Source: Promethearchaeota archaeon (GTDB taxonomy: Archaea > Asgardarchaeota > Lokiarchaeia > Sigyniarchaeales > SOKP01). Taken from it: 25,034 bases of DNA. The DNA lies in contig JAHLWP010000048.1 of NCBI GenBank assembly GCA_019057865.1, forward strand, positions 1 to 25,034. The letters are read 5' to 3'. Position 1 is the stretch's first letter, and each line of letters begins with the position of its first letter. The notes beneath the pieces were generated by a model. It ran no database searches and was not told the origin of the DNA. It saw only the letters and a list, made by a program, of their open reading frames with translations. Positions 1,756 through 19,390 of the stretch are shown here, in pieces. The position numbers were made by a program, and so were the translations under genes.

Positions 1756-2052
1756 ATGGTACAGGATAAAGAAGAAATTCTCAAAATGCTTAAAAAATTA
1801 AAAGCTGAAATTAAGAAAAATTATAAAGTGAAAAAAATTGGATTATTCGGGTCATATGTAAATAATAAGCAAAAAGAGACAAGTGATATCGATTTTTTAA
1901 TTGAATTTGAAGATGATGCTGATTTATTCCATTATATTGGGTTATCCCTCTTTTTAGAAGATCATTTTAATAGAAAGGTTGATGTGATATCAAAACCTAC
2001 ATTGAAAAAAGAATTAAGGGAACAAATTCTTCAAGAGGTAATATATGTCTAA
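1756..2052 (+). CDS. Minimal nucleotidyltransferase (MNT) antitoxin
   Basis: 98 aa with GLFGSY...SDIDFLIEF and C-terminal RKVDVI. Overlaps the start of a DUF86-like gene, the standard MNT-HEPN arrangement. Confidence 0.92.
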   Translation: MVQDKEEILKMLKKLKAEIKKNYKVKKIGLFGSYVNNKQKETSDIDFLIEFEDDADLFHYIGLSLFLEDHFNRKVDVISKPTLKKELREQILQEVIYV

Positions 2053-2410
2053 AAATTTTACAATTTACTTAAATGATATTAGAGAAGCAATAAATAGCAT
2101 AGAAATTTTTGTAGAAGGAATGACCTTTGAAGAATTTAAAAATGATGATAAAACTTCGAGTGCAGTTATTCGAAAATTTAGAAAAAATCTACATAAACTC
2201 ATTGAAGAAATTAATAATTACAATCAGATTTTTATAGAAAAGCGATTAAAAAATTATTCTTCCTTTTTAGATGGAAAAGATGATGGATTAAAGTATCCCT
2301 TAGATGAAGAACAAAGATTAGCCGTAATAAAAGATGATAAACATAACCTTGTAATTGCGGGAGCTGATTTCTTTAATATTTTATTTAATTTCTTATTCTT
2401 ATTATTATAA
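2045..2410 (+). pseudogene. Chimeric remnant: truncated HEPN/DUF86 toxin N-terminus fused in frame to a fragment of a UvrD/helicase IV-like protein
   Basis: aa 1-45 (YLNDIREAINSIEIFVEGMTFEEFKNDDKTSSAVIRKF) are typical of DUF86, but the EIIGEA and RxxxxH motifs are missing. aa 46-107 (PLDEEQRLAVIKDDKHNLVIAGA) match the SF1 helicase Q-motif and start of Walker A, broken before GSGKT. Confidence 0.8.
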
Positions 2411-2563: not shown

Positions 2564-3880
2564 CTAAAAATTTTTTTGATTATATCTTCTTACTTCTTTA
2601 TCAACAATTTTAGTTTTAATTTCGCTTGTTAACATTTCAAAGTTTTCATATTCTATCCTATCAAGACCTTGTAGATCAGCGGGAATCTTTTCTCCTCGCT
2701 TATGAATTATGTAAAATAGCTTTTTTGCGCCTCTAGCTAACCCTAATTCTAATGTTACATTTGGATTACTATTTGTTATATCATAAATCCCAAATTGCGT
2801 AGTAGATATCATATGTTCAATTTTATCTAATATATGAGTTCCATTTCCCATGAGCTCCAAATCTGCATAATAACCGTTTAATTCAGTCTCTTCAAATGCA
2901 TGCTGAATAGACTGGGTAAGTTCACTTTTATCGCCACGACTAAAATCATAGGCAACAAAAAAATGATATTTTTTCTTCTTAATTCTTTGACAATATTTCA
3001 CAACCTCTTGTGGATTAGTCACTGCTCCAGATTCATCAAACCCACATAAATCATTAATAATTGTGGATAAAATAGGAGTTTGATCAATAAATAGGGTCTT
3101 TAAGTTTACTAATTTTTCCAATCCTTTAATTTGAGTTATATTATTTCCTTTTAAGTTAAGGATCTCTAAATTTTTGAGATTTTCTAAAGATTTTATTTCC
3201 GAAATATAATTTTCTTCTAAATTTAATTCATTTAAAGTTATAAGAGATTCTAAACCTGCCATATCTTCTATACTGTTCTCATACAATTCTAAAACTTCTA
3301 ATCTCTTGAGATTTTTAAGACCTTTTATATCTTTAATATAATTCTCTCTTAAATTTAGAGTTTCTAAATTCATAAGAGAATCAAGTCCCTGAATTTTAGA
3401 TAATTGATTATAACTAAAATCTAAAACCCATAACTTATTTAAAGAATCAAGCCCTTTAATTTCAGATATCGAATTATTTGATAAATAAAATTCTTCTAAA
3501 TGCGTAAGATGATCCAGTCCTTTAATTTCAGTTATTTGATTACCATTTAAATTAAGAATTTCTAGAAATGTAAGATTTTCAAGCCCTTTAATCTCATTTA
3601 TTAGATTTTTCGCTAAGTTAAGTACTTCTAAATGTTCCAGTGTATTTAACCCGTTTATTTCTTTAATTTGGTTATCACTCAGGTCTAATTGTTCTAAATT
3701 AATGAGCTTTTTTAGACCTTTGATCTTGGAAATATTATTTCTACTTAAGTTCAAGACAGTTAGATCTGTAAGCTTAGTTAAGCCCTTAATTTTAGTTATA
3801 TCTTCTATATTTTTTGAACTTAAGTCTAATTCCCCTGATTTTAATTCATATTTAATTCCCTTATAAATTACATAAGTCAT
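2564..3880 (-). CDS. SDS22/internalin-type LRR protein with C-terminal nucleoside-deoxyribosyltransferase/TIR-like domain
   Basis: About 11 22-aa repeats LxxLxLxxNxIxxIxGLxxL. C-terminal FFVAYDF...QFGIYDITNSNPNVTLELGLARG...IPADLQG, where NPNVxxELGxA is the NDT-like catalytic motif. Confidence 0.85.
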   Translation of the reverse strand: MTYVIYKGIKYELKSGELDLSSKNIEDITKIKGLTKLTDLTVLNLSRNNISKIKGLKKLINLEQLDLSDNQIKEINGLNTLEHLEVLNLAKNLINEIKGLENLTFLEILNLNGNQITEIKGLDHLTHLEEFYLSNNSISEIKGLDSLNKLWVLDFSYNQLSKIQGLDSLMNLETLNLRENYIKDIKGLKNLKRLEVLELYENSIEDMAGLESLITLNELNLEENYISEIKSLENLKNLEILNLKGNNITQIKGLEKLVNLKTLFIDQTPILSTIINDLCGFDESGAVTNPQEVVKYCQRIKKKKYHFFVAYDFSRGDKSELTQSIQHAFEETELNGYYADLELMGNGTHILDKIEHMISTTQFGIYDITNSNPNVTLELGLARGAKKLFYIIHKRGEKIPADLQGLDRIEYENFEMLTSEIKTKIVDKEVRRYNQKNF

Positions 3881-3928
3881 TTTAATATAGGGTTTGTTTT
3901 CTTAAAGAAAAATTATTTAATATAGAAA

Positions 3929-6031
3929 TTATTCATTTTTCTCGGGATTAATTAATCTTAAAACCTCTTTGCCGAAAATTTCACTAAAAATGTCCTTCAT
4001 TTCGGGAGTTAAGTTATAAACACCTAATCTTTGATTAGTTTGGATTAATTCACTTCCTAACTCTTTTTCAACTTTCTTTATATATGTGAATATCTTCTGG
4101 TTTAGCCAATCAGATGGCCTATTTTTAAGGAAAAAAATTACTTTGAACCTGTTTCCGCAGATAAAATCGCCCATAACAAAACGTTTTTCATAACTTATCG
4201 ATAAGTTTTTCCCAGATTTAAATTCAGTTGCTATATCATCTAAAGCTTTAAAATATCCACCAAGAACATTGACATCAACATCTCCTATTGTTTGCATAAA
4301 TTCTTTATGAAAAATTACAGTACCACTTTCTGCATTTTGAATTAATATCAATTGGAGATTATCAATGTCAGGATCTTTTATATATGGGAGAGAGATAAAA
4401 TTGTTAATTTCTTTATCAGAATTTTTAATTATTTTATATAAATAATAAGGCTTTTTAATGTACTTCGCGTCTAGGATACTTTTCCAGAGTGGATCTTTAA
4501 TAAGTTCTGAAATAGCACCTTGAGAATCCTCTATCAAACATAATGGTACTCCAAATGCGATAGCAATGTAATATTCTAAAATATTTATATAATTACCATC
4601 AATTCCAATCATTTTTATTTCATTTAACTTAGCTGGAGAATTTAATATATCAAACCAATATTGAAAAATGATCGCTAAACATTCATCTAAAAGCACTGGT
4701 TTTTTGCGTACAATTTTTCCGATTATCTGTTTAAATTCAGTTCTTTGTGGTTCATATAAATAAGCTTTATAATTAGAGGTAAATGTATAAAAACCTAATA
4801 TTAATTTTTCTATATCATCGTTGTTGCAACCAGATATTAGGACTCCATCAAATTTGTTAAAAACATTGCTTAAATTCGTAATTAATTCGTTCAATTTGAG
4901 AGAACCATAGCTAGAAACACCACCTGCAGATATTACTATTGAATTTTCTAATTTAGGTAAAGTTACGTTAAGTTCTTCATTAATTAACTTATCTTTAATT
5001 TCTTTCCATTTATTAGTATTTTGGATCCCTAATTTTTTTAGAAAGAATCCTATACTTAATAAGAATAGAACTCTAACTTGTTTAAATCCAGGAATTTCCT
5101 CTTGAACTACTGTGGCTAATTCTAATGTTTTTAACGTAGTTTCTATAGTCCAAATATCTGGACTATCTCTTATTCCTAATAAAAAATAATAAAAACCTAA
5201 TTCAGTATTACCTAAAAACAAATGGAGGGTTCCTAAATCATAGAAAGCCCAAGGAATGTCTTCAGATTTTTTTATTTGCTCTTTTCTCTTTTGTATAGCT
5301 AGTTCTATATATTTCATATAACGTTTAATTGGCTTTATCTTTTTCTTAAGAGCAATTTCCAAAAGAATTACATTAACTAGCGGATAAGAGTAATCGCGAG
5401 CTAATTTCCATGCTTCTAAATAATAATTACAGGCTTTTTTATTGTCAATATATTTCCATCTTCCTCCTAAAATGGAATATGCATCAGAATCTTTTGGGTT
5501 TATTTGAATGGCATTTTCTAAGTAATCTAATCCCTCATTATATTCCAAAAAGGAATCAATAGATAATTTTGTTTTATAAAATCCTAGTTCTCTATATATT
5601 CGTGCTTTAATTTCTGACCTTGATTCTTTTTGGATATTTTCTTTTAAAACTCCTTCTAAAATTGCTACTGAATTTTTCCAATCCTCCATTCCTGAATATA
5701 TTTTAGCAATTTCAAGGGCTATTTCAATCTTTTCATTATTATTCTGAGATTTGGCATAGTTTGATCTTAAGGTATCGATTTCCTGATATTTCTGATAAGG
5801 ATCTCCATAGAGTGTGAAACCATATTCATATTCTTTAATTTTTCTAAAGATTTTATTCATTTGAACATTAAAAAGATTAAAACTTTCAAATAAATTATTC
5901 TTAATTTTTTCAAAAACTATAGATCTCTCTACTTTTTCAGTATCCTCGTAATATCTCTTTTTAAGTTCTTTTACTCTCTCTTCTAATAGTTTATTAAATT
6001 CCTCATAAGAACATAATTCTTTCTCATCCAT
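3929..6031 (-). CDS. TPR + degenerate SLOG + C-terminal longin-like domain protein (paralog of 6063-8072 lacking the synthetase domain)
   Basis: TPR motifs (IYRELGFY, DAYSILGGRWK, DIPWAFYDLG) are collinear with the neighbouring gene. SLOG-like region (SIVISAGG, GVLISG, IGIDGN..LEYYIA). The last ~140 aa (LILIQNAESGTVIF...GYFKALDDIATEF...RPSDWL...VEKELG) resemble Asgard longin-like domains. Confidence 0.7.
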   Translation of the reverse strand: MDEKELCSYEEFNKLLEERVKELKKRYYEDTEKVERSIVFEKIKNNLFESFNLFNVQMNKIFRKIKEYEYGFTLYGDPYQKYQEIDTLRSNYAKSQNNNEKIEIALEIAKIYSGMEDWKNSVAILEGVLKENIQKESRSEIKARIYRELGFYKTKLSIDSFLEYNEGLDYLENAIQINPKDSDAYSILGGRWKYIDNKKACNYYLEAWKLARDYSYPLVNVILLEIALKKKIKPIKRYMKYIELAIQKRKEQIKKSEDIPWAFYDLGTLHLFLGNTELGFYYFLLGIRDSPDIWTIETTLKTLELATVVQEEIPGFKQVRVLFLLSIGFFLKKLGIQNTNKWKEIKDKLINEELNVTLPKLENSIVISAGGVSSYGSLKLNELITNLSNVFNKFDGVLISGCNNDDIEKLILGFYTFTSNYKAYLYEPQRTEFKQIIGKIVRKKPVLLDECLAIIFQYWFDILNSPAKLNEIKMIGIDGNYINILEYYIAIAFGVPLCLIEDSQGAISELIKDPLWKSILDAKYIKKPYYLYKIIKNSDKEINNFISLPYIKDPDIDNLQLILIQNAESGTVIFHKEFMQTIGDVDVNVLGGYFKALDDIATEFKSGKNLSISYEKRFVMGDFICGNRFKVIFFLKNRPSDWLNQKIFTYIKKVEKELGSELIQTNQRLGVYNLTPEMKDIFSEIFGKEVLRLINPEKNE

Positions 6032-6062
6032 TTTATAAAAAACCTTTATTTTTCAATTGTTA

Positions 6063-8072
6063 TTAATATTTTGTTATAAAAAATTCAATATCCTTTTCTG
6101 TGTTTTCTAATAATTTCAACCGGGGCTTTTTGCCAATTTGAAAATCTTTCCAATTGGGATCTTGAATTAAAAGATCTGCACTACGTCCACTTCCTTCTAA
6201 TATGCCTAATTTTGCATTAAAAATTAATGCTATATAATATTCTAACCTTGCGATGTTTCCTCCACCAATTCCTAAGACTTTAACAAATTTACTTTGAATA
6301 TTACTTCCCCAGATATCTAACCAATAAGAAACTGCTTCCTTAATAGTAAAACCTAATCCATCAGTGTGCCTAATTTCACAATAACGATTGTCAATCTTTT
6401 CACTATCAGGTATTTCCTTTGGCACGTATCCTATGCTTTTAATTTTTTCACTATATAATTCTTCAAGCTGACCTCCAAAAGCACTTACACCTGCTAAGGT
6501 TCCTCCAGAGATTAAAGTCCCTTCATATTTATTAAATCCACTAAGAACATTTTTTTGATATTTTTCAATTAATTCCTCATCCTCATTTCTGGTAGAGCCA
6601 ATTATTATAACAACAGGAGGTTCAATCTTACTATATGATGATTTATAATATGATTTTAATCTATTTATTGCAGGCTCATCATCATATTTAAATGCAAGAC
6701 TTAATAATAGTAGGTTTTGGATCAAATCTAATCCAGGGAATAAATCTTTGAAGTTAGAAAGCAAATTTAATGTTTTAAATGTAGTTGATATCATCCAATC
6801 ATGATTAGAATATCGTACACCAAGAAGATAATTAATAAAGCTGTTCTGGAAATTACCAAGAAATAAATTAAAAAGACCTATATTATAATATGCCCATGGA
6901 ATATCAATTTCCAATTCAATTTGAGTATTACACCTTTCAATAGCATCTAAAATGAAAGGTTTTGATATTGTGATTAGATCTAGATTCCTCAATTTCCTTA
7001 ACTCATAAATTAAGTAGTTACCTAAAGAATATGCGTCGTGCGGATTTATCGCGAATGCTTTTTCATAACAATCCCGAGCTTTATCCTCATCAAAATCTTT
7101 ATAATAGCCTCCTAAAATTGCCATCGCATCCCAATCTAATGGATCCAATTGAATGACTTTCTTTAAATAAGATTCTGCTTTTTGGTATTCTTGGCTATCT
7201 TTTTTGTAATAACGTCTTATGGCAAAACCTAATTCTCTAAGTATAGGTGCTTTATCTAAATGGGCATATTTAGATAGTAAATTCACGACTCTTGACCAAT
7301 CTCCTATGTTTCTAGCCAATAACGCCATCTTATAAACAGTATCCACATTCTCAGTGTCAGCCTCATGAATAATCTGAAGAACTTCGAGTTTTTTAGTGAT
7401 TTCTTTTTCACTCAGATATCCACCAAAATTGGTTTCATAATCTTTTATTATCATTTTTATTCGGGAAATAGATTCGTCAATTTGTTCTAGGAGTGCTGCA
7501 GATCTATGAAACTCTCTTTTCCACTGATCCTTTAACTTATACGCTCCTTTATATCCTAAATCATGATATATGGAAGCATATGCATGTTCATTTATTGTAC
7601 GGACTTGAATCTCTGCTTTCTGCGACAAATAAGATTTAGGGATGTTCAAATCCTTATATAATGGAGAAGTTTCTTTTAAAGTAATTGAATAGGAATCAGT
7701 TCGATATCCAAACTCTGATACTGCTAAACTATCAACTTTATTCTTGCCTATGCTAGGATCAATTATAAAATTTTCTTTAATTAGCATAGATGCTCTTTTT
7801 ACGTCATCTATAGTTGGTAAAATAAGCCGTATTCCACATATATCTGTCATTTCTGTTATGGGATCTTTATAGTGTGGCTGACGTAGGATTTTTTCTGCAA
7901 AACTTGTTAACGATTTTACTCTAGTTTGTATTATATATTCTGTTGCGATTTGTTTGCCTATTCTATGCAGAATTTTTTTCAGGATTTTGTTGAATTTAAT
8001 GAATTGTGAATATCTTTCTTTATATAAATTTAGTTGTTCTTTAATTAGCAATTTTCTCTCTTCTTTCATCAC
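6063..8072 (-). CDS. RelA/SpoT-type alarmone synthetase domain + TPR + SLOG fusion
   Basis: Synthetase motifs RVKSLTSFAEK, DICGIR, FGYR, EIQVRT, HAYASIYHDLGYK. Central TPRs (ILRELGF, DAMAILGGYYKD, IPWAYYNIG). SLOG motifs VVIIIGST, LISGGTLAGVSAFGG, VLGIGGGNIARLEY. No HD hydrolase, TGS or ACT domain. Confidence 0.85.
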   Translation of the reverse strand: MMKEERKLLIKEQLNLYKERYSQFIKFNKILKKILHRIGKQIATEYIIQTRVKSLTSFAEKILRQPHYKDPITEMTDICGIRLILPTIDDVKRASMLIKENFIIDPSIGKNKVDSLAVSEFGYRTDSYSITLKETSPLYKDLNIPKSYLSQKAEIQVRTINEHAYASIYHDLGYKGAYKLKDQWKREFHRSAALLEQIDESISRIKMIIKDYETNFGGYLSEKEITKKLEVLQIIHEADTENVDTVYKMALLARNIGDWSRVVNLLSKYAHLDKAPILRELGFAIRRYYKKDSQEYQKAESYLKKVIQLDPLDWDAMAILGGYYKDFDEDKARDCYEKAFAINPHDAYSLGNYLIYELRKLRNLDLITISKPFILDAIERCNTQIELEIDIPWAYYNIGLFNLFLGNFQNSFINYLLGVRYSNHDWMISTTFKTLNLLSNFKDLFPGLDLIQNLLLLSLAFKYDDEPAINRLKSYYKSSYSKIEPPVVIIIGSTRNEDEELIEKYQKNVLSGFNKYEGTLISGGTLAGVSAFGGQLEELYSEKIKSIGYVPKEIPDSEKIDNRYCEIRHTDGLGFTIKEAVSYWLDIWGSNIQSKFVKVLGIGGGNIARLEYYIALIFNAKLGILEGSGRSADLLIQDPNWKDFQIGKKPRLKLLENTEKDIEFFITKY

Positions 8073-8104
8073 TAAATAACCTTATTCTTTGAATTTTATT
8101 AAAA

Positions 8105-11100
8105 TTATTCTCTAGATAATTCTTGTAATATCCTTTCTGTTTTATGAACAAAACGCCTGTATTTTTTTGGATCTATTTTCTCTAATTCTTTATTTAATTC
8201 AAGAACTTCATTAAATATAGTTTTTGATAGATTTAATCTGCCAATCTTTCTGTATAAGTAACCTAAATTACTCTTGATTATTGCTTTAAATTTTAACTGG
8301 ATTTTAGATTTAATATTTATTAATTTATCATTATTATTTAATGCTTTTAGATACATTTTTTCAGCTTTATCATAGATTCCTAAATCCTCAAATGATAATC
8401 CTACATAATTTTCAATCTTCATGAGTTCTTCTCTATATAAATAAGAATTTGATACTGAGGGAAAATCAATTAAATCTACTGAAATCATGGGGGTTATCTT
8501 AACCATCTCTAATTTATCAAAATTCTGATAAAAGAGCCTTATATCGTCAAAAATATCGTTAATATATTTTAGTTGCTTTCCTGGGTTATCTTCTTCTAGA
8601 TCTAATATATAGTCTAAAGCTAATGCGAAATTTCTTTTGGTACTCATGAACTTTTTAAATTCTGATTGTATTAATGCTCTTTCATGATGAAGACAAGCAA
8701 GATACTTTGAACATTTCTTGTATATCTTTGCCTGTTTAAAAACCTCAATTGCGTTATGATTACTGATCAAAGCTTCATTTTTTAAATTGAATTTAAAATA
8801 AAGGTGTGAGAGAACTAAATGTACCTTAGCTAAAGATATTAAGTAAAATTCAGGATTAAAATCTGCCAATTCTTCATAATCTTTTTTGCTTTTAAATAAA
8901 GCTTCTTCTGCTTCATTAAATTTGTCTAATTTATTGTAAAGACTTCCTAATTCTTTTTTAACTTTAGCTAAACGAGGAAAAAATATTTTAGGATTGATTT
9001 CTGCTATTCTTTGGTATATTTTTAAATCTAATAATTTTGCTCTAATTGCTTTATCATAGTGGTTTAGATCCATATAGAATTTACCAAGTTGATCTGTATA
9101 TATCTCAACATAGTGTAGAAAAATCTCTGGATATCTAAAAGCTAACCTTTTTCTGACTTTTTTTGCTGTTAAAAAACAAATCTCTGCGTCTTTTAATTTA
9201 TTTTGATTCAAATATATTTTAGCTAGATCATTATAAGTGGTATCTACATAATACAAAAATAATTCTGGATTCTTTTTTGAAAGTTTTAAGTTAATCTTCA
9301 ATGCTTCTTTATATGCATTTTCAGCTTCGAAAGGCTTATTTAAGCCACGGTAGAAATTACCTAATCGATTTTGTATATCCGCGACATTGTTTTCAAATAA
9401 ATCAGGATAGTATAAGGCTAGTTTTTGGGCTTTACTTAATGCTTTTAAAAAAGATTCTTCTGCTTCTTCAAATTTTTTTGATTTAGAATATAATGTTCCT
9501 AAATTACGATGAGACCAAAAGATACTTTTATCTATTTTGAAGGGCTTGCTTTTGCTAAGTAATTTCTTTATTTTTAATGATTCTTTGAATAATCTTTCGG
9601 ATTCATCGAAATCTTTCAAATTTATAAAAAGAAGGGCAAGTTGGTCCCATGTCCAAGCTTTGTAATATAAATAATATTCTGGATTTTTAATTGATAGATC
9701 TTCATAAATCTTTAATGCTTTTAAATGCATTTCCTTAGCAAATTCATATTTTTTCAGTTTTTTATAAATTGCGCCTAAGTTATTTTGTATCCACGCTAAA
9801 TCAGATAAATAAGTCTCAGGATCTCTCTCTGCTAATTTTTCTCTAATTTTTAAAGCTTTTAAAAACTCTTTTTGAGCTTTCTTCTTCATTTGTATCTGAT
9901 TGAATAATAATCCAAGATTTCCCCGCGTCCATGCTAAATCTGCTAGATAATCATTACGATCCGTCAATGTTAGTTCTTTTCTTATCTCTAAAGCTCGTTT
10001 AAATGAATTTTCTGACATTTTATAGCTTTTTTTTGCTTTATATAAAAGTCCTAAATTACCATAAGTCCATGCTAAATGTGGTAGGAATATATTGGGTTCT
10101 TTTTTAACTAAATTTAATTTGGCACTCAAAGCTAAATTATGAAAATCTTCCGCCTTATCATATCTTCTTAATTTCATACACAAGGTTCCCAATTTGTCAT
10201 GTACGTCAGCAATGTTATCTTGGTACAAATTAGGACTTAATTCTTCTAAATTAAGATAAATTTTTAATGCTTCATTGTAGGAATCCTCTGCCTTAGAGTA
10301 TCTTCGCGTAGTATAATAAAAAATTCCAAGCTGATAATATATTTTAGCTTTTAATTCACCTTCAAAAAATTCTTTTAATTTCTTTCCAAGCGTAACCAAC
10401 TTATTTAAGCTATATTGCTTTAATAATTCTGGGTTCTCGATACTTAAAAAATTTAATGCTAAATCTTCAGTAGTCTCCAATAATGAATTATGGTACATTA
10501 ATTCTGTAAAATCTTCCGGATTTTCACCGTATATTTCTTTCTTTTTGTTATAGTAATTCACAGCTAGCTGATGACTAATGGTGTCTACATCAAGTCCTAA
10601 TGACTCTTTTATATGATCATATATGAATTCATATGCCTCCTCTTGAATATCTTTCTTCTTTAAAAACCCAGCATTTATCAACTTTTTAAAGCTTGATTCA
10701 AAATCATTATCTTGATAAAGAGTTTCAATAACTCTTTTGTTAATATTATTTTCAATATCTGAATTTATAATTGACAAATTCTTTAATAGCTCGTACTCTT
10801 CATCAGAGAGAATTTCCATAACAATTCTGTTTAAATATTCCTCAGTTTTTTCAGAATCAACATTCAATATAATATTTGGATCAAAGATCTCCATTTTATC
10901 AACATTAATATGGTCATAGTTTCTCACAATTAACTCCATTGAAATAGGATGTCCTTCTGTTATATTACTTATCTTTTCTTTGTTCGAATCACTTATATTT
11001 TTATGAAAACGTTCGCTTAACATTTCGATATAATCAATTCTATCAACTTCATCTAATCCCTTGAGATGATGAATTCTTCGGGTATTACCAATCGACTTTC

Positions 11101-12097
11101 GCGAAGAGCAAATAACAAAATCTAAATATTTCACTAAATTTCTCACATCTGAATCAGCAAGATGAAAATCATCAATGAGCAAATGAACTTCTCTTTTTTC
11201 AATTAATTCTGAAATTTTTTTAAACTTAATTTCTTTAACTTCTTGTTTAAGCTCGTTGGTATCAGGAATATATCTTGATAATGCATCAATCACATCATCC
11301 AATATTATCTCATTTCTAAAAACTCTATGATATACATCCCGACATTTATTTTTAAAGATTTTATATCCTGAGCCTGTGATGTAAAATTGTCTAGGGCCTA
11401 AAGCAATTATTTGTTTTCCTCTTAATTTCTGCAATAATAATATCACCTGAATTAGAGAAGTTTTTCCAATACCCCCAACACCATAAACCTCAATACTCTC
11501 ATCTAAATTGTTCATTAAATATGCAATTGATGATCTTCTATTGTAAAAATCTTCCAGTTTCAACTGTCCTTTTGAGTACCATTCAACAATATTATTTACT
11601 AAATGATCAGTAATTGTATTTACGATTCCAGTATCTTCAATATTTTGTATTTTAAAATAATTCTCTTTACCAACTTCTTCAAGAAATTGTTTCACTTTAT
11701 CTTCGATATTTATTTCATTCGATATTGTTGAAGTAGTTTTGACCTTAGAGTACTCAGGAATAAAGTAAGATTGATGTAATATCCCTTCTGCTTCAGTTAC
11801 TTTATATTCGCAGTGGGTATAGGATATTGGTTCATTTTTTATCTTCAGTGGACAATTTTCTGCTTTGCAATCTTCAATATTACACTCGTTCAATAAAGTA
11901 CCATAAAAAGGAGTTATTAAAAAAATTACGATATCACTTTTCCTAATCTCCCTTATACTCACATCTTGCGAGTAATTGCCATTTGGAATAAAATTTTCCA
12001 TCCCCACTCCATCAATGCTTTCATTTAAAGCATCAAGTATCAATTCCCTAAAATTTTCTAGATCTTTTGAAGTGGAACTTAAAAAAACTCTAAGCAT
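8105..12097 (-). CDS. NLR-like STAND NTPase: DUF4062 (TIR-like) - NB/AAA - TPR array
   Basis: N-terminal RVFLSSTSKDL...SDIVIFLITPFYG...SYTHCEY (DUF4062). Walker A GVGGIGKT, Walker B LLIDDFH, GHP motif and a wHTH-like region. About 15 TPR units of ~46 aa (LAxxxxNLGxLY...ALxI). Confidence 0.9.
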   Translation of the reverse strand: MLRVFLSSTSKDLENFRELILDALNESIDGVGMENFIPNGNYSQDVSIREIRKSDIVIFLITPFYGTLLNECNIEDCKAENCPLKIKNEPISYTHCEYKVTEAEGILHQSYFIPEYSKVKTTSTISNEINIEDKVKQFLEEVGKENYFKIQNIEDTGIVNTITDHLVNNIVEWYSKGQLKLEDFYNRRSSIAYLMNNLDESIEVYGVGGIGKTSLIQVILLLQKLRGKQIIALGPRQFYITGSGYKIFKNKCRDVYHRVFRNEIILDDVIDALSRYIPDTNELKQEVKEIKFKKISELIEKREVHLLIDDFHLADSDVRNLVKYLDFVICSSRKSIGNTRRIHHLKGLDEVDRIDYIEMLSERFHKNISDSNKEKISNITEGHPISMELIVRNYDHINVDKMEIFDPNIILNVDSEKTEEYLNRIVMEILSDEEYELLKNLSIINSDIENNINKRVIETLYQDNDFESSFKKLINAGFLKKKDIQEEAYEFIYDHIKESLGLDVDTISHQLAVNYYNKKKEIYGENPEDFTELMYHNSLLETTEDLALNFLSIENPELLKQYSLNKLVTLGKKLKEFFEGELKAKIYYQLGIFYYTTRRYSKAEDSYNEALKIYLNLEELSPNLYQDNIADVHDKLGTLCMKLRRYDKAEDFHNLALSAKLNLVKKEPNIFLPHLAWTYGNLGLLYKAKKSYKMSENSFKRALEIRKELTLTDRNDYLADLAWTRGNLGLLFNQIQMKKKAQKEFLKALKIREKLAERDPETYLSDLAWIQNNLGAIYKKLKKYEFAKEMHLKALKIYEDLSIKNPEYYLYYKAWTWDQLALLFINLKDFDESERLFKESLKIKKLLSKSKPFKIDKSIFWSHRNLGTLYSKSKKFEEAEESFLKALSKAQKLALYYPDLFENNVADIQNRLGNFYRGLNKPFEAENAYKEALKINLKLSKKNPELFLYYVDTTYNDLAKIYLNQNKLKDAEICFLTAKKVRKRLAFRYPEIFLHYVEIYTDQLGKFYMDLNHYDKAIRAKLLDLKIYQRIAEINPKIFFPRLAKVKKELGSLYNKLDKFNEAEEALFKSKKDYEELADFNPEFYLISLAKVHLVLSHLYFKFNLKNEALISNHNAIEVFKQAKIYKKCSKYLACLHHERALIQSEFKKFMSTKRNFALALDYILDLEEDNPGKQLKYINDIFDDIRLFYQNFDKLEMVKITPMISVDLIDFPSVSNSYLYREELMKIENYVGLSFEDLGIYDKAEKMYLKALNNNDKLINIKSKIQLKFKAIIKSNLGYLYRKIGRLNLSKTIFNEVLELNKELEKIDPKKYRRFVHKTERILQELSRE

Positions 12098-12322
12098 AAT
12101 TTAAAACCCTCAATTATAATTTATATTAATAAAAAGGATCTCTACCTAGTTAAGAATACACCTAATTAGTTGATTTCAAAAATTTTTTACAAAATTGAAT
12201 ATATAATTAAATTAGATTTTTCTCTATTTATATCTTTTAATCAAAAAATTTCAAACTCAGATCATTAAATACTTTGTTTTTTAAGTAGAGTAATTCTAGT
12301 TATGTGAAGTATTTATGATTAA

Positions 12323-13656
12323 TTATTCATGTAAAACAATTTCTCTCCAATTTGGCTCAATATCACTTAAAATAAAATCCAGGATCTCTTCGGCAACAGG
12401 TTTTATGAGATCCTCCCCTGTTAAAGAAACATCAATCAAAAAATCAATAGTAGTATATCCAATATTGATCAACTCAAAGCGTATTTGTTCGTGTTTTCTT
12501 TCAGAATCATACATATCTTCTGGAGAAACAAATCTTAATTGATAGTAATCATGAATTAGATCATTAATTCTAGTAATTAATTTATCATCCCTCTCTCCGA
12601 ATTCAAATTCGAACTTAGGTAATTCAACATCAATATTATCATGAATTGATTTCAACCTTTCTATTATAAATCGTGTTTTTAAATCTGGATCGTGATCTAA
12701 TAGATTTTCTGCTAAATCAATCTCACCAGCATCTATTTCCAAAAAGGAGAAGGGAAGAGTACTTAAATTATTATCTGATAAAAACAAATATTGAAATTCC
12801 ATACGACCAAATGATTCTGGGAGACTTGAAATTATATTATGGCTTAAATCTAAAATTCCAAGATAATTTAAATCTACAATAGAATCAGGCAAAAATTCTA
12901 TTTTATTATTTGATAAACTTAAAAAATCAAGATGTTTTAACTCATCAATCCATCCTGGAAGTGATTCTAGATTAACGTTATCTAAAATCAATGCATTTAA
13001 GTTCTCAATTTTCCTTAAAGATTCAGGTATTCGTTCTATATTACAATTACATATTCCAATTCCGTCAATTGCATTATTTTCATTTATTAATAAAGCAAGT
13101 TTTTCAAAATCATAATTAATTCTTCAAAAGATTCCAAATAAATGAAGAATTCACCAGTTATAGATTCAATTTCTTCAAGAACTTCAACTTCTTGTTTTGG
13201 CAAGTACACACCCCTAAAAAATCTGCGTTCAACTTTAGGTTTAGGTGGAGTTTCACTTTGAATCAATTCTAAAATTAGTTTAATATGGTCTAGTAGTTTA
13301 TTTAAATGATTTTCTAAAGAAGCACCAATCGCGTTATACCACTGTATATCACCAAGATAATATTCGAACTTTCCACTCGGCTCGACATCTTCAATTCTAA
13401 ATGGGATGATATTAATCTCATTCTTTCCTCCTATAGTCAACTCCCTTCCTACATGTTTTGATAAATTAGCTTGTTTTGAGAAAACAAGTAAAATTAGATT
13501 GGAATTTTTAATTGCATTTACAATTGAATTTTCCCATTGACTTCCAGGTGTAGCATCACGATGATCGATCCAACACTTAATATCATGCGTCTCTAAATAA
13601 TCGCAGAGTGTATTAGCTATTGAATCATCTTTACTTGAATGGCTTATAAAAATCAT
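12323..13656 (-). pseudogene. Frameshifted TIR-LRR-CTD gene (ORFs 13087-13656 and 12323-12991 are one gene), paralog of 20846-22180
   Basis: Changing frame near 13114-13121 gives NYDFEKLALLINENNAIDGIGICNCNIERIPESLRKIENLNALILDNVNL, which runs without a stop into ORF 12323-12991. It is collinear with the paralog's NNEFKNLGLLLSEENTVEGIGILDCNLEEMPESMRNIDNLNVLILDNTNL. Confidence 0.9.
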
Positions 13657-13791
13657 ATCATATAATAATGGATTTTAATTATGATTAAGTAGATATTATT
13701 TTTAAGGATTTCCTGTATTAGAAAAGCTCACAAAAGTATATTAAAATTGTTTTCTCATTTTTAAATATCAAAAGGAAATCAAAAAAATAAA

Positions 13792-14016
13792 GTGACTAAA
13801 ATCGAAAACCAATTTGTAATTGTTAATGGAGAGAAAATCTTCGTAGATAAGGAAGGATATCTTGATTTAACAAGGGAAAAAATTACTGATATGGATGAAA
13901 TTATCGGACTTGAAAATATTGAGGGTTTAAAAGTACAATTTAAATCTCGAATTGTAAATTTTGAGGATTTTATGATTAAATTGATTAAAATAATAAAAAA
14001 TGAAAGGTATCGATAG
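13792..14016 (+). pseudogene. Truncated LRR gene stub (N-cap and first repeat only)
   Basis: FVIVNGEKIFVDKEGYLDLTREKITDMDEIIGLENIEGLKV resembles the N-terminus of 2564-3880 (YVIYKGIKYELKSGELDLSSKNIEDITKIKGLTKLTDLTV). The LRR pattern then stops. Confidence 0.65.
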
Positions 14017-14034
14017 TCAAATAAATAATTGACT

Positions 14035-15486
14035 TTAGATCGAATTTTTTAATAAATCAAGTATTAATTGGTTAAAATATCTATTAGGATTTGTTTTTTC
14101 ATTAATCATTGGTTCAGAAGGTTTATAAAAGGATAATATCTTAAAAACAAGTCCGGAGCTTAAAATAATATTCCCAACTGTTTCTAATCCATGAGAATCA
14201 CTTCCAATTGTAAAAATTGGTTTTTTATCTGAGATGTTATATTTTGCATATTCTTTTACCATATTAAAAAAGAGTTCAATAACCTCTTCTAAGGAGTTTT
14301 TGGCATAATGGTTATAATTTGTATATTTTAAGTTGAAAATTTCGATTCCTTTTAGCCCTTTTTCTAATAATTCTGTAATATTTTCTTTTGTTTCATAATT
14401 GTAATAACCTACATGTGCTAATATGCTTATTCCAGAATGTTTATCTGCCCATTTAATAACCTCTTCAACAGGGACATTTCCCCAGAATTTCTTATCGTGG
14501 ATCCTATCTGTTGCTTTATTAAGAAGTTCATTTGTATATAAATCAAATCCTTTTAGCGCCCATCTTTGAAAATTGTCCAATTCAGGAAAATATACCAATA
14601 TATCTCTTCTATCATCAATCCAATCATTAGATTTTTTTATTCCGGTTGCCACTTCTATTCCCGGGATTACATCAATATTGAATATTGTACCAATCTTTAT
14701 TGCTTTACAAACACCATCAAAATTGTTGTGATCAGTAAGAGAAATTGTTTTTAGTCCAATTTCCTTAGCTTTACATAAAATTTCTCCTACAGATTGACTA
14801 CTACAATCAGAATAATGTGAATGAATGTGTAGGTCCATTAGAATCTGAGATTCACAAATATTTTTTGAATGCTTTTTAGGTATACTTGAAGTTACTAACA
14901 ATTTCTTTAGGCAATCCAATGCGATATCCACTAAGAAAGTTAAGATCTTGTCAAATAATTCATCAGAATAAAGTTTGATATCCTTAATAACTTCAAGATC
15001 GATTTTTTTTGAAGATTTATTTAAAACTCGGTCCTTAAATTCATATATTTCGAGGAATATATTCAGTCTTCTTAAATTCCTTATTATATTTGAAATTTTA
15101 TTTGAGTTATTTACTTTTTCCATGCAATAATTTATATACTTTAAATAATCGTTTTGGATAATATAATCTATAAGATCTTCTTTTCTAATCCTCCTTGCTT
15201 TATGCTTTATCTCCAAAAGACCATCAATGCCATATCCTTTTTGATGAATCTCTTTTCCATTAGAAAAATCAGGGTATTTTCCTTCAATTTTATGATTAAA
15301 TGGCTTAATTTTACGATTAAAACCCCAAAGCATTTCTTTAATCTGTTCTGAGGTCGTTAAAGTGTCACACCAATTTTTAAAAATAAGAAAAATTCTCTTT
15401 AATAGATTTTTTAGTGGTTTTTTTTGACTTTTTAAGATTTCATTAACCCTATCAGTTATATCTTCGCTATAATAATTGATCGACAT
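14035..15486 (-). CDS. PHP-family phosphoesterase with unknown ~215-aa N-terminal region
   Basis: DLHIHSHYSD, SLTDHN, IPGIEV, ILAH, GIE and GSDSH metal-binding motifs (TrpH/YciV-like). Confidence 0.88.
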   Translation of the reverse strand: MSINYYSEDITDRVNEILKSQKKPLKNLLKRIFLIFKNWCDTLTTSEQIKEMLWGFNRKIKPFNHKIEGKYPDFSNGKEIHQKGYGIDGLLEIKHKARRIRKEDLIDYIIQNDYLKYINYCMEKVNNSNKISNIIRNLRRLNIFLEIYEFKDRVLNKSSKKIDLEVIKDIKLYSDELFDKILTFLVDIALDCLKKLLVTSSIPKKHSKNICESQILMDLHIHSHYSDCSSQSVGEILCKAKEIGLKTISLTDHNNFDGVCKAIKIGTIFNIDVIPGIEVATGIKKSNDWIDDRRDILVYFPELDNFQRWALKGFDLYTNELLNKATDRIHDKKFWGNVPVEEVIKWADKHSGISILAHVGYYNYETKENITELLEKGLKGIEIFNLKYTNYNHYAKNSLEEVIELFFNMVKEYAKYNISDKKPIFTIGSDSHGLETVGNIILSSGLVFKILSFYKPSEPMINEKTNPNRYFNQLILDLLKNSI

Positions 15487-15565
15487 TTCATGCTCTTAAC
15501 ATATATTTTAAATCAAGAATATCTTAATAAAATCTTATTACATAAGAACAATTGCAAATATGTAT

Positions 15566-15580
15566 AAAAAACTTTAAATA
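15566..15580 (+). promoter_or_regulatory. Archaeal-type BRE/TATA candidate for 15630 gene
   Basis: AAAAAAC-TTTAAATA about 50 nt upstream of the ATG, with GTGAGG (SD-like) at 15611-15616. The AT-rich background lowers specificity. Confidence 0.4.
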
Positions 15581-15629
15581 TTGACTTTTTAATTTAAAGA
15601 GAATTTTTAAGTGAGGAAATCATTTAATA

Positions 15630-17402
15630 ATGGCTTATATCTTTATAAGTTATTCTATTGCAGATTCAAACAAGTTTCAAATATCTAAAATTGCTGAAGA
15701 TTTGACTAAGTTTCCGGAAATTGAAAATACACTTTACTGCGAAGAAGACGCCAGAGAAGATTTTATTAAATATATGAATGAATACATAGAAAAATCTGAT
15801 ATTATGCTCCTTTTTTGTTCTCAAAACTCTAAAAATTCCAAATTTGTAAGTTTGGAATGGAGAGTCGCATTGAGTTTAGAAAAGAAGATTATTCCTGTTT
15901 TCATAAATCCGAAACATGTTCCGCCTTTATTATCTTCGATGATAGGAGCTGAATTCAATGAATTTGATTATAATTCTACATTAAAAAGTATTTACCATTT
16001 AATTTTAAAAAATTTAACCAAATCAGAGGATGAGCTCAAAATTCAAGCTCAAATTCTAACTAAACCTAAGGCAGCTTTTAGGGGAAAACTAGTAAATAAA
16101 AAAGAAATTGAGAATCTAAAGAGAATGCAGTGTGAATTAAATAATTTAATTGAAAAATTTGAAGTAAATGCAGATGGATCAGTAATTTCATTAGATCTCT
16201 CGTCAATTTATTTACAAAAGATTCCTAAATCCATTTTATTTTTTCCAAATTTAATATATATTAATTTTTCTGAAGATTCTTTTGAGAATGATAAAGGTAT
16301 TCGTAGACTGGTATATAATGGCGTAATAGTAAAAATTGAAGGGAAACCTTATGAAGATGGTCAAGTAGAAGCAAGAAAAAAAAGAAGAGAGGAATTAGAA
16401 AAAATTGGTAAAGAAAATCAAGATATAGTTAATCAAGCTCAAAGTTTTATTACGTCGGGAGACTGGGACACAGCTATAAAACTCTTAAAGCGATCAAGAG
16501 AAATATGTGTGCATCAAGGATGGTCTTCAGGTGTAGACTACGCATATAAAATGATTTTAGAATCTGAGAAATATAAAAAAGAAGAAACTGAAAAGAAAGT
16601 GAAAAGAAGAGAAAAGATGTTAATCACATTAAAAAAAATTCCATTAGAAGAAGAAACAGCACTATTTGAATTAGAGAAATTATTAAAAAGAAAATTTAAT
16701 TTGTTCATAGAACCCCAACTGAATAAAAGTATGACTTTCACTATAGAAAATAATAATATTATAGCATTAGATCTCTATAAATGTAAATTAAACAATTTCC
16801 CCGAAGAAATTTTTATGTTTACTAAGCTCAAGTATTTAAATTTAAAACGTAATCAAATTGTTAAACTTCCTAAGTTAATTGGTCTATTTAAATCCCTTAA
16901 GTTATTACGTTTGTCAAATAATATGTTAAATTGTATCCCTAAATCAATATCAAAATTAAAAGCCCTTAAAACTCTAGATTTAAGTAATAATAAACTGAAA
17001 ACTCTCCCAGAATCCTTATCTGAATTGAGATCCCTTGAATATCTCGATTTGAATAACAATGAATTTTCTGATTTTCCTAATTCTATACTTTACATTTCAA
17101 CACTTAAAACTTTATATTTAAATTTTAATAATATTTACACAATTCCAGAGTCTATAGGAAATCTGTCTTCATTAGAAACCTTATACTTAAACTTTAATAA
17201 CATTAGATCAATTCCCGAGTCAATAGGCAAATTAAAATTTCTACAATATCTTAATTTACGTGATAATTATTTATCAGATTTACCCTCTTCCTTAACAGAA
17301 CTAAATTCTATCCAGACATTAGTACTAAGTGGGAATAACTTTAAAACCATCCCCTGGCAGGGGACTTTTTTAGAACGTAGAAACGTAGAAATCATCATAT
17401 AA
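15630..17402 (+). CDS. TIR + short capped LRR + helical/TPR-like linker + LRR array
   Basis: IFISYS...DIMLLFCSQNSKNSKFVSLEW...KIIPVF (TIR). GDWDTAIKLLKRSREIC helical hairpin. About 9 23-aa LRRs (LxxLxLxxNxLxxLPxSIxxL). Confidence 0.9.
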   Translation: MAYIFISYSIADSNKFQISKIAEDLTKFPEIENTLYCEEDAREDFIKYMNEYIEKSDIMLLFCSQNSKNSKFVSLEWRVALSLEKKIIPVFINPKHVPPLLSSMIGAEFNEFDYNSTLKSIYHLILKNLTKSEDELKIQAQILTKPKAAFRGKLVNKKEIENLKRMQCELNNLIEKFEVNADGSVISLDLSSIYLQKIPKSILFFPNLIYINFSEDSFENDKGIRRLVYNGVIVKIEGKPYEDGQVEARKKRREELEKIGKENQDIVNQAQSFITSGDWDTAIKLLKRSREICVHQGWSSGVDYAYKMILESEKYKKEETEKKVKRREKMLITLKKIPLEEETALFELEKLLKRKFNLFIEPQLNKSMTFTIENNNIIALDLYKCKLNNFPEEIFMFTKLKYLNLKRNQIVKLPKLIGLFKSLKLLRLSNNMLNCIPKSISKLKALKTLDLSNNKLKTLPESLSELRSLEYLDLNNNEFSDFPNSILYISTLKTLYLNFNNIYTIPESIGNLSSLETLYLNFNNIRSIPESIGKLKFLQYLNLRDNYLSDLPSSLTELNSIQTLVLSGNNFKTIPWQGTFLERRNVEIII

Positions 17403-17524
17403 ACTCGGTAGCTCTCTTAAATCTTATAAATTTAAACTGCCAAAATTAAATATGTAATTTGGGCTATCTTTTTAGAATATTGTTATTGATAAATTTAATA
17501 TTATAGAATAACTAAATCCATCAC

Positions 17525-19288
17525 ATGGGTATAATAGTTTTTATCAGTTATGCTATAAAAGATTCAAGAATTTTCAAAGTATCAAAACTAGCCAAATTAC
17601 TACTTAATTATACTGAAATTGAGGATGTATTATATTGCGAAGAGTACGCCCGTGATGATTTTATTAAATATATGAATGATTATTTAGATAGATGCAATGT
17701 CCTTCTTCTTTTTTGTTCTCCGAATTCATTGAGATCGGAATTTGTAGCAATGGAATGGAGAGCTGCGATAAGTTTGAAAAAAACGATTATTCCAGTCTAT
17801 TTAGATCCAAAATATATACCTCCATTGCTCTCTCCAAGAATAGGTGTGCAATTTGATGAAAAAGATGTTGGTTTAACCGTAGATAATATAATTCTAACAA
17901 TAAAAAAAAATATTAGTAGTAAAAATTCTGCAATCACTCATTTAGAAGAGAAGATCCCTTTTAGAGGAAAAATAGTGAGGTATAGTGAATATGAAATTTT
18001 AAAAGAACTCCAAGAAGAAATAAATAATTTAGTAGAAATTTTTGAAGTAAATGAGGATGGATTCGTAGTTTCTTTAGACTTTTCTTCAATTTACTTAGAG
18101 AGAGCTCCTAAAACAATAAGGTTTTTTACCAAACTTATGGAAGTTAATTTTTCTGGATACTCTTTTACTTCTGATGGGATGTTGATGAATATAAAATTCG
18201 ATGGATTGATAATCAAATTCGAAGGAAGGCCATACCAAGATGGAGAAGTGAAAGTCAGAATTGAAAGAGAAAATGAGTTATCACGAATAGGAGAAAAAAA
18301 CGCAAAAACAATTGAAGCCGCTAAAGGGTCCTTCTGTTCAGAAGATTGGGATAAGGCCATTAAATTATTTCAGCGTTCCAAAGAGATTTGTTTGGAGCAA
18401 GGGTGGTTTGGAGGTTTTAAATTTGCTGAAAGAATGATTATAAAGGCAAAAGAAGAATTTAGAAAAGAAAATGAACAAATTAAGAAAGGAATAAAAGTAA
18501 GAGAAGAAATATTTAAACTGCTACCAGATCATGAAATAAAAATACTTCAAAATATTGAGAAAAATTTAAATAAACCTTTTATTTTAGTAGAAGAGATAAA
18601 AGATAATACTAGAATGGCTTTTACTGTAAAAAATAACCACATTTCAGGTATAAGCCTTTACAAAGAGGGAGCTATTCAGTTTCCAGAAGAAATATCGCAA
18701 TTAACATATCTTAAGAAATTAAATTTAAGGCGTACGTATAATTTGATTACTCTCCCTGAAGTTTTTGGAGAGATAACCTCTCTTGAAGAACTATATCTAC
18801 AAAACTGTAAAGTAACACAAATCCCAGATTCATATCAGAATCTAACTTCTCTTAGAATTCTTGAATTAAATAGAAATAATCTTGAAAGCTTTCCACCCTT
18901 TCTCGGTAAATTGCAATCACTTGAATTTCTTGATTTAAGAGGAAACTTATTGTCTGAAGTTCCAGATTCTATTGGAGACCTCAAATCACTTCATACATTA
19001 TATCTAAATTTCAATAAGTTAAGAAGACTTCCAGAAACTATTGGCAACCTAACTGCTTTGAAAACCCTTTATCTTAATTTTAATATGTTAATTACTCTTC
19101 CAGATTCGATTTGTGAGTTAAAATCACTCGAATACCTTAATTTGCGCGATAATTTTCTTACAATATTACCAGAAAAATTAGCAGATATTATATCGCTAAA
19201 AAAACTTGTCATATATGGAAATAACTTTAAAGAAGTTCCAAGACAAGCTTATTACTTAGAAGATAGAGGAGTAGATGTTCTTAAATAA
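17525..19288 (+). CDS. TIR + short capped LRR + helical/TPR-like linker + LRR array (tandem paralog of 15630-17402)
   Basis: Same architecture and collinear along the full length (YCEExARxDFIKYMN, EGxPYxDGxV, YLNFN twice, NLRDN). TIR motif SEFVAMEW. Confidence 0.9.
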   Translation: MGIIVFISYAIKDSRIFKVSKLAKLLLNYTEIEDVLYCEEYARDDFIKYMNDYLDRCNVLLLFCSPNSLRSEFVAMEWRAAISLKKTIIPVYLDPKYIPPLLSPRIGVQFDEKDVGLTVDNIILTIKKNISSKNSAITHLEEKIPFRGKIVRYSEYEILKELQEEINNLVEIFEVNEDGFVVSLDFSSIYLERAPKTIRFFTKLMEVNFSGYSFTSDGMLMNIKFDGLIIKFEGRPYQDGEVKVRIERENELSRIGEKNAKTIEAAKGSFCSEDWDKAIKLFQRSKEICLEQGWFGGFKFAERMIIKAKEEFRKENEQIKKGIKVREEIFKLLPDHEIKILQNIEKNLNKPFILVEEIKDNTRMAFTVKNNHISGISLYKEGAIQFPEEISQLTYLKKLNLRRTYNLITLPEVFGEITSLEELYLQNCKVTQIPDSYQNLTSLRILELNRNNLESFPPFLGKLQSLEFLDLRGNLLSEVPDSIGDLKSLHTLYLNFNKLRRLPETIGNLTALKTLYLNFNMLITLPDSICELKSLEYLNLRDNFLTILPEKLADIISLKKLVIYGNNFKEVPRQAYYLEDRGVDVLK

Positions 19289-19388: not shown

Positions 19389-19390
19389 GT

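Follow-up and report, generated by a model that had tools for sequence, protein, structure and literature searches.

Four adjacent genes of an Asgard archaeon raise the question of whether sensors that cleave nicotinamide adenine dinucleotide (NAD) can be joined to an alarmone-synthetase-type enzyme in one immune pathway. The genes, here called A, B, C and D, occupy positions 2564–12097 of contig JAHLWP010000048.1 of a Promethearchaeota archaeon (assembly GCA_019057865.1). The window analysed is this complete 25,034-bp contig, and the parent assembly of 4.26 Mb is 99.7% complete. A gene for ribosomal protein S8e marks the genome as archaeal. An earlier note on this DNA had described four co-oriented genes with gaps of 32, 31 and 48 nucleotides (nt), and the open reading frame (ORF) coordinates bear this out, all four lying on the minus strand. 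The domain orders it had proposed, DUF4062-STAND-TPR, RelA/SpoT-TPR-SLOG, TPR-SLOG and LRR-NDT/TIR-like, each found support in Pfam, in Foldseek searches with AlphaFold2 models, or in the two together. We read the locus as an immune module in the manner of Thoeris, with an NAD-derived signal and an effector of the alarmone-synthetase type, and give this reading a probability of about one half. It is strengthened by the tie between the B family and NADase-type sensor genes across phyla.

Gene B and the neighbourhoods of its family

Gene B (6063–8072, minus strand, 669 aa) comprises a RelA/SpoT-type pyrophosphokinase domain (nt 7425–8015), a TPR-S region (nt 6663–7397) and an LSDAT-type SLOG domain (nt 6066–6617). 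In Pfam, residues 50–176 matched RelA_SpoT with 54 bits (cut-off 27), residues 258–355 matched TPR-S with 26.2 bits, slightly below the cut-off of 27.6, and residues 486–638 matched LSDAT_prok with 28.5 bits (cut-off 25.4). The nearest solved relatives of the synthetase domain were the small alarmone synthetases RelQ/YjbM and RelP (E ~1e-9), and the small-alarmone-synthetase motifs RVKS, DxCGxR and EIQVRT were present. In a 24-member alignment of the family, the ATP-binding, Mg-binding and catalytic residues R51, K53, D77, R82, K152, E154 and Q156 were invariant, as were both SLOG glycine loops. The acceptor-site motif GYRSxH, canonical in many relatives, reads GYRTDSY in the gene B clade. Gene B was the only RelA_SpoT match in the whole genome. 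Its sole PADLOC match was the candidate PDC-S33, on the RelA part, and the A–D operon contained no adjacent gene for a small antitoxin or alarmone hydrolase of the toxSAS kind.

Judged by its domains, gene B looks like a receiver-effector, with two ligand-sensor domains, one enzyme and no recognisable threat sensor. The sensing part may be TPR-S as much as SLOG. Burroughs and Aravind reportedly predicted in 2020 a TPR scaffold recognising NAD-derived signals. The annotated GTG start of gene B (window 8067–8072) is directly followed by an ATG, and because all homologues begin with M-K-E, the ATG is the likelier true start, which would give 668 aa and a 35-nt gap to gene A.

A scan with one genome per species found the B family in 270 species genomes from many bacterial and archaeal phyla. 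The closest homologues of the studied genes came from Promethearchaeia/Promethearchaeota (Asgard) assemblies and from a Loki's Castle sediment metagenome. For the neighbourhood analysis, loci were selected only by B homology; ORFs were called in 80 of the 270 loci, 78 of which had a B-type gene, and the neighbours were searched with hidden Markov models built for the purpose and clustered without prior labels. A TIR gene lay within three genes of the B homologue in 27 of the 78 loci. A NUDIX gene of ~143 aa did so in 28, being immediately adjacent in 27, all co-oriented, and a RyR-domain protein, often TrkA_N-RyR, in 20. At least one of the three kinds of neighbour was found in 52 loci. The largest neighbour cluster, of mixed TIR, TPR and STAND proteins, had 43 of its 46 genes co-oriented with B. 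Representative neighbours had the Pfam architectures TPR_MalT-TIR_2, TIR_2-TPR, nSTAND1-TPR, DUF4062-NACHT-TPR, WD40, NUDIX and TrkA_N-RyR, and in a Calditrichaeota genome a gene with the architecture of gene A (DUF4062-NACHT-TPR) immediately precedes the B homologue.

Under an assumed background of 2%, TIR adjacency in 27 of 78 loci has a binomial p of ~3e-26. Five genomes were found to hold 2–8 TIR_2 genes each, about 15 of the 21 beside the B homologue, a numerator that is biased by the choice of genomes in which TIR genes adjoin B. Because the genome-wide TIR background is low, chance adjacency in a third of the B loci is very unlikely. Their domain composition suggests that the TIR and DUF4062 proteins linked to B are threat sensors, with a head that would cleave NAD and repeats of the TPR_MalT, LRR, NACHT/STAND or WD40 kind.

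The co-oriented ~143-aa NUDIX gene adjoins B in L021, L063, L020, L018 and about 40 other loci, bacterial and some archaeal. Many of these NUDIX-bearing loci also have a TrkA_N-RyR or RyR protein, and a RyR domain is common at the end of their B protein. The animal channels TRPM2 and RyR, which respond to ADP-ribose (ADPR) or cyclic ADP-ribose (cADPR), draw on the same domain families, LSDAT-type SLOG, NUDIX and RyR. Neighbours of another sort were seen in L010, L012, L056, L070, L015 and L006, where B stands beside very large beta-helix/NosD, laminin-G, PKD, Ig or CBM proteins; in L010 and L012 the beta-helix neighbour additionally carries a TIR_2 domain.

As a set the four genes vary: relatives retain A-B or B-C-D, and synteny of all four, suggested earlier as a check, was not conserved. 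In L001, the closest full relative (B 83% identical), the gene that comes after A and B is an unrelated one of 358 aa, and a gene with an NDT domain lies upstream of A. The 358-aa gene was considered as a counterpart of C and rejected, being unrelated by BLASTP and without a Pfam family; a language-model atlas gave low-score leads only. L003–L005 (B 82% identical) have B-C-D with the tail end of an A-like gene upstream. L008 (B 55% identical) has B-C-D; upstream of it lie a DUF4062 gene and a pair of TIR-LRR genes, and of these three genes two are on the opposite strand. C and D were confined to a narrow Asgard clade.

Genes A, C and D and the rest of the contig

Gene A (8105–12097, minus strand, 1330 aa) begins with a DUF4062 domain (nt 11801–12091; residues 3–99, 51 bits against a Pfam cut-off of 24.7), the only strong DUF4062 match in the whole genome. 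A STAND NTPase follows (~nt 10418–11545), with Walker A GVGGIGKT at 206–213 and Walker B LLIDD at 306–310; its AAA_16 and nSTAND6 matches fall below the Pfam cut-offs. The C-terminal part is an array of many TPRs (nt 8108–10360, residues 580–1330). The order of N-terminal effector domain, P-loop STAND NTPase and C-terminal repeats is that of Avs proteins, and PADLOC returned no family for gene A, its Avs models included. Gene A and its Calditrichaeota counterpart (L075, 1111–4320) share the DUF4062-NACHT/STAND-TPR order of human NPHP3, and both match the Pfam NPHP3 TPR and helical-domain models.

A single-sequence search of the PDB with the gene A N-terminus gave no match, and an alignment profile was required. 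The profile of A-type N-termini matched the solved DUF4062 of human TEP1 (11gz_A, E 6e-13) and chains deposited as "KpSwz TIR/DUF4062" (10wc_A, E 3e-5); its match to a plant TIR (7xoz, E 0.035) was weak. The VTEAE of gene A (E102, E104) aligns with SVTEME of TEP1, so that the acidic motif is kept. A direct hhalign comparison of small DUF4062 and TIR alignments produced a 24-column match with 16% probability, and we take DUF4062 to be TIR-like because of the PDB profile matches and the preprints on the domain. According to the latter, DUF4062 turns NAD+ into ADPR and nicotinamide (10.64898/2026.05.01.722283; 10.64898/2026.09.04.749371). In PsAvs2 (DUF4062-STAND-TPR), DUF4062 is the N-terminal effector of an Avs2 protein that protects alone via NAD+ depletion (2026 preprints). 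Gene A therefore belongs to a class that is already known from these preprints, that of self-contained NAD-depleting Avs sensors. DUF4062 genes are also enriched beside defence genes.

Gene C (3929–6031, minus strand, 700 aa) comprises a TPR-S region (nt 5012–5863), a SLOG domain (nt 4391–4954) and a Roadblock/LC7-like tail (nt 3932–4390). It had been called a synthetase-less paralogue of B, and BLASTP agreed: residues 57–547 of C aligned with 201–667 of B at 29% identity (E 6e-47), and C has no synthetase domain. The SLOG and the tail had no Pfam match, Robl_LC7 included. An AlphaFold2 model of residues 340–700 (predicted local distance difference test score, pLDDT, 79.8) showed a SLOG/LOG fold with Foldseek matches to 1rcu_A and the TRPM2 chanzyme 8srk. 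The intact glycine loops of the superfamily are missing: in gene C and its close orthologues SGGT has become SGCN and GIGGG has become GIDGN, and the TPR-S motif IPWA is kept. In the second loop, NGG is still present in two divergent C-type sequences, namely the L008 gene and P0034.

The last 150 residues of gene C matched the Roadblock/LC7 fold of MglB, LAMTOR and Rag C-terminal domains (Foldseek, target template modelling score, TM, 0.55–0.66; probability 1.00), and the secondary-structure order in the model, alpha-beta-beta-alpha-beta-beta-beta-alpha, is that of the Roadblock/LC7-longin fold. For the tail, earlier called longin, Roadblock/LC7-like is the better name, the longin matches being weaker. 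This tail was restricted to Asgard-type loci, and the bacterial counterparts end in a RyR tail.

End to end, gene C aligned with 855-aa Asgard proteins in which a single chain joins RelA/SpoT, TPR-S and SLOG to the Roadblock tail. In an unrooted maximum-likelihood tree of the shared region, C-type proteins were monophyletic (100/100) and stood apart from the gene B clade; B and C are on this tree old paralogues because the two clades are separate. An origin of C as a recent tandem copy of B was rejected in view of this 100/100 clade and by the tail common to the 855-aa fused forms. In these fused forms (P0018–P0023, P0035, P0036), GYRSxH is replaced by SLGHFQTY or FLDHxQTY and the catalytic EIQ(V/I) is kept, a pattern that may mean another acceptor or inactivity.

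Gene D (2564–3880, minus strand, 438 aa) has ten LRRs (nt 3071–3832, Pfam LRR families) and an NDT/MilB/TIR-like C-terminal domain (nt 2582–2980). The C-terminal piece scored 24.6 bits with CAP12-PCTIR_TIR, against a Pfam cut-off of 24.7. Its AlphaFold2 model (pLDDT 90.5) matched the CMP N-glycosidase MilB (TM 0.67), NDT and DNPH1, and then the TIRs of SPARTA, STING and MyD88. Together with this N-glycosidase fold, the expected conserved Glu was found: E378 (LELG) was invariant in 42 sequences. A representative library held 880 relatives of the domain, among them fusions to receiver-plus-phosphoesterase, SIR2-death-domain-caspase and other conflict-type modules. The domain type recurs near other B homologues, in the 296-aa protein encoded upstream of A in L001 (4885–5775) and in a 347-aa protein of two Gemmatimonadota loci (L037, 5484–6527; L044, 871–1914).

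An AT-rich stretch of 225 nt (12098–12322, minus strand), read directly from the sequence, lies 5' of gene A. It is the sole long non-coding gap ahead of the four-gene set and likely the promoter region of the four genes. AAGGT-like motifs precede the start codon in two of the internal gaps (31–48 nt). Beyond the spacer, TIR_2 and LRR genes form an array (12323–24890) that uses both strands and includes six TIR_2 genes by Pfam matches. The array genes at 15630–17402, 17525–19288, 19391–20746, 20846–22180 and 22407–24890 are TIR_2 and LRR genes, and a minus-strand pair at 12323–12991 and 13087–13656, with 95 nt between its members, encodes a TIR_2 protein of 189 aa and an LRR protein of 222 aa. 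From its layout this pair seems to be a single TIR-LRR gene that has been split; its paralogues at 19391–20746 and 20846–22180 are each one unsplit gene.

The genome had seven TIR_2 matches in all, six of them on this 25-kb contig; the seventh gene, on contig C11, matches both TIR_2 and DUF4062. When the six window TIRs were aligned with three from other loci, one Glu was invariant, and by the S..V..E motif it is read as the catalytic position. Two of the array TIRs weakly matched PADLOC models of ThsB. The array genes are candidate extra NADase sensors feeding B, a link we infer from the family-wide adjacency.

Three things are particular to the window: the receiver is divided between B, which bears the enzyme, and C, which lacks it and has the Roadblock tail; their transcription unit also includes a gene of the DUF4062-STAND-TPR type and one of the LRR-NDT type; and nearly all TIR genes of the genome adjoin the locus. 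The window contains no GTPase gene. Within the TIR-LRR array lies a PHP-domain gene (14035–15486, minus strand, 483 aa) with a weak DnaB_C-like stretch. On the other side of the locus, an MNT nucleotidyltransferase/HepT-like toxin-antitoxin pair (1756–2052 and 2045–2410, plus strand) overlaps by 8 nt, its MNT member matching the PADLOC candidate PDC-S09 (E 1e-32). The contig also carries a gene with Ig-like and Exo_endo_phos domains.

A proposed Thoeris-like pathway and its alternatives

In the proposed Thoeris-like pathway, NADase sensors, namely A, the neighbouring TIR-LRR genes and possibly D, would detect an invader through their repeat domains and split NAD+ into ADPR or a cyclic or modified derivative. 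Gene B would bind this product by TPR-S, SLOG or both, and binding would free its N-terminal RelA/SpoT-type pyrophosphokinase. The enzyme would then make a toxic alarmone, or pyrophosphorylate another acceptor such as tRNA, and growth would stop. Gene C, which lost the enzyme and the SLOG loops and kept the TPR-S core motif and a Roadblock dimerisation-type tail, may be a regulatory or scaffolding partner of B, and NUDIX in the bacterial loci would reset or buffer the signal or the product. We infer every biochemical step, and likewise which way the signal runs, what ligand and product are involved and that the locus serves defence.

The earlier proposal of signalling from NADase domains to SLOG/TPR stands in part. 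The receiver-effector architecture of B and the cross-phyla linkage to NADase genes favour it, and several observations weigh against it. Gene A may act alone, with no signal to B needed, because DUF4062-STAND-TPR is a described self-contained class. The domain of gene D resembles effector-type TIR/N-glycosidase domains most closely, so that a signal-making role is only a candidate one. The share given to SLOG is weakened in that TPR-S may sense as much. Because GYRSxH is altered in the gene B clade and lost in the 855-aa forms, the product of B may differ from (p)ppGpp, and some family members may be inactive. A TIR neighbour was detectable at only about a third of the B homologues and is hence not obligatory, some homologues adjoin large PKD, Ig or beta-helix proteins and not defence genes, and the close relative L001 is without C and D. 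The interpretation of the four genes is a plausible hypothesis that is only partly specific to these four.

The alternative that survives best, although we consider it unlikely, is that the locus is a part of a defence island of independent genes, in which A, D and the TIR-LRR proteins are self-contained, B with or without C is a separate one-protein sensor-effector, and no messenger is passed. Protection by PsAvs2 alone fits this, as do the shuffling of the gene set among close relatives, the adjoining MNT/HepT pair with its PADLOC candidate and the match of the RelA part of B to the single-gene candidate PDC-S33; the catalogue of TIR signalling, moreover, left out TIRs in Avs proteins as effectors. 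A mere island does not readily account for the co-oriented NADase genes found beside B homologues in unrelated phyla (43 of the 46 genes in the largest, mixed neighbour cluster share the orientation of B) when the five genomes counted hold only 2–8 TIR genes each. It also leaves B, whose TPR-S and SLOG belong to small-molecule sensor families, without a recognisable threat sensor, and it does not explain NUDIX near B in 28 loci.

A more far-reaching form of the Thoeris-like reading is doubtful. The locus would be an Asgard two-tier pathway like that of plant TNLs, in which NLR-like and TLR-like NADase receptors, DUF4062-STAND-TPR with the NPHP3/TEP1 architecture and TIR-LRR, make ADPR-type messengers. 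These would be read by a dedicated heteromeric receptor, formed by B and its enzyme-dead paralogue C, with the alarmone-type pyrophosphokinase as output. Through the Roadblock tail, nucleotide immunity would be tied to the small-GTPase platforms that eukaryotes came to use later, and TRPM2-type SLOG, NUDT9-type NUDIX and RyR would descend from one prokaryotic ADPR-sensing immune module.

There is a still smaller chance that the system serves physiology, B being an NAD/ADPR-responsive, stringent-type regulator that tunes growth or dormancy to redox, NAD status or cell-cell cues. The TIR/LRR proteins would then be general receptors and the Roadblock tail a link to small-GTPase signalling, as the matches to MglB, Ragulator and Rag, all small-GTPase platforms, would suit. 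The B family is common in bacteria with complex lifestyles (Chloroflexota, Planctomycetota) and in Asgard archaea, several homologues adjoin large surface-type PKD, Ig, beta-helix or laminin-G proteins, and TrkA_N-RyR neighbours recur. The distribution of B is patchy, however, and by appearance horizontally transferred; paralogous sensor arrays are typical of conflict systems, DUF4062 genes gather beside defence genes, a toxin-antitoxin pair adjoins, and the locus content differs between close relatives.

Least probable is a reversed polarity, in which B senses a metabolite by SLOG/TPR-S and its RelA/SpoT domain makes an alarmone-like messenger that activates D, the TIRs and DUF4062 as effectors: the D domain is nearest to CAP12/Pycsar effector TIRs in sequence and to the MilB and DNPH1 N-glycosidases in fold, and for other conflict systems it has been proposed that RelA-type domains generate messengers (PMC7159879), but the TIR, DUF4062 and D proteins have LRR, TPR or STAND threat sensors and no known nucleotide-messenger receptor domain, B has receptor-type domains and no threat sensor, and the NUDIX partner suits an ADPR-type input at least equally.

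If the Thoeris-like reading is true, a ligand-gated RelA/SpoT pyrophosphokinase would be a new effector class in TIR/NADase-based immunity, joining NAD-derived signalling to alarmone-type growth control, and such logic would operate in Asgard archaea, where no Thoeris system is annotated. With 270 species genomes in the B family, one biochemical characterisation would annotate many genes. LSDAT-type SLOG, NUDIX, RyR, NPHP3/TEP1-type DUF4062-STAND, TIR-LRR and Roadblock are also used in eukaryotic channels, NLR-like proteins and GTPase platforms, and because the domain families are the same, the locus bears on the prokaryotic roots of these eukaryotic modules. The Asgard virus JinchiV3 encodes a Tad2-like Thoeris sponge, and prediction found no complete Thoeris system in the genomes of its putative hosts (PMC13700489); an unannotated TIR-signalling system like the A–D locus could be the target of this sponge.

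Comparison with known systems

The earlier note knew no named system for this combination, and the searches agreed with it. PADLOC gave no named system at the A–D locus, only the candidate PDC-S33 on B, and neither RelA/SpoT nor LSDAT is listed in the supplementary tables of the 29-type Thoeris catalogue. Full-text literature searches found no description of the system; the papers defining LSDAT and TPR-S, which lay outside the search, may list RelA/SpoT-TPR-S-SLOG. The three DUF4062 preprints do not mention SLOG, and text searches of them found no mention of RelA/SpoT.

Gene A resembles Avs2 with the NIR/DUF4062 effector (PsAvs2), Swarozyc and Evangelion in its DUF4062-STAND-TPR order and in the conserved acidic motif, which aligns with that of the active human TEP1 domain. 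It differs from them in being archaeal, in having no PADLOC Avs match and in being recurrently followed by a B-type gene.

The N-terminal domain of gene B is nearest to RelQ/YjbM and RelP and keeps the ATP-binding, Mg-binding and catalytic Glu motifs, as in RelQ/RelP, toxSAS and CapRel. Unlike these, it has a 450-aa sensor module of TPR-S and SLOG and an altered acceptor motif, and it lacks the antitoxin-like neighbour of toxSAS, in place of which its bacterial relatives have a NUDIX neighbour.

TRPM2 is an ADPR-gated channel with an LSDAT SLOG in MHR1/2 and a NUDT9-H NUDIX domain. Gene B shares its SLOG subfamily (Pfam LSDAT_prok; the 8srk match concerns gene C), and bacterial relatives pair SLOG with a NUDIX gene and a RyR domain. 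The output of B, however, is a predicted enzyme and not a channel, and ADPR binding by the prokaryotic SLOG is putative. In fold, the tail that C shares with the fused Asgard forms is like the Roadblock/LC7 proteins MglB, LAMTOR2/3 and the Rag C-terminal domains; unlike them, the C tail is fused to SLOG and not partnered with a GTPase.

The closest parallels are with Thoeris. The SLOG of ThsA binds 3'cADPR, and the TPR-S-type TPR of the type VIII effector is the presumed canonical cADPR sensor (10.64898/2025.12.03.692087). Type VIII Thoeris (TIR with the cADPR-activated CMP-hydrolase-TPR protein ThsI) and BcTir/BcTpr resemble the locus in having an Aravind-type sensor TPR (TPR-S) beside TIR genes, and the enzymatic domain of gene D has the MilB/CMP-hydrolase fold. 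The TPR-S of B, by contrast, shares one chain with RelA/SpoT and SLOG, and the MilB-like domain belongs to a different protein, the LRR protein D.

Type I Thoeris (the TIR protein ThsB with the SIR2-SLOG protein ThsA) likewise has TIR-type NADase genes that adjoin a SLOG-bearing effector, with several sensor paralogues per locus. Three features of Thoeris-type systems recur here: a TIR gene encoded with the effector, a small-molecule sensor on the effector and a conserved TIR Glu. The effector B is nevertheless a RelA/SpoT-type pyrophosphokinase and not a SIR2 enzyme, its SLOG is of the LSDAT (TRPM) type and preceded by TPR-S, neither B nor C matched the PADLOC models of ThsA, and the TIR proteins linked to B carry LRR, TPR or STAND sensors. 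The logic is that of Thoeris; the effector enzyme, the combination of sensors and the receptor-like TIR proteins are what set the locus apart.

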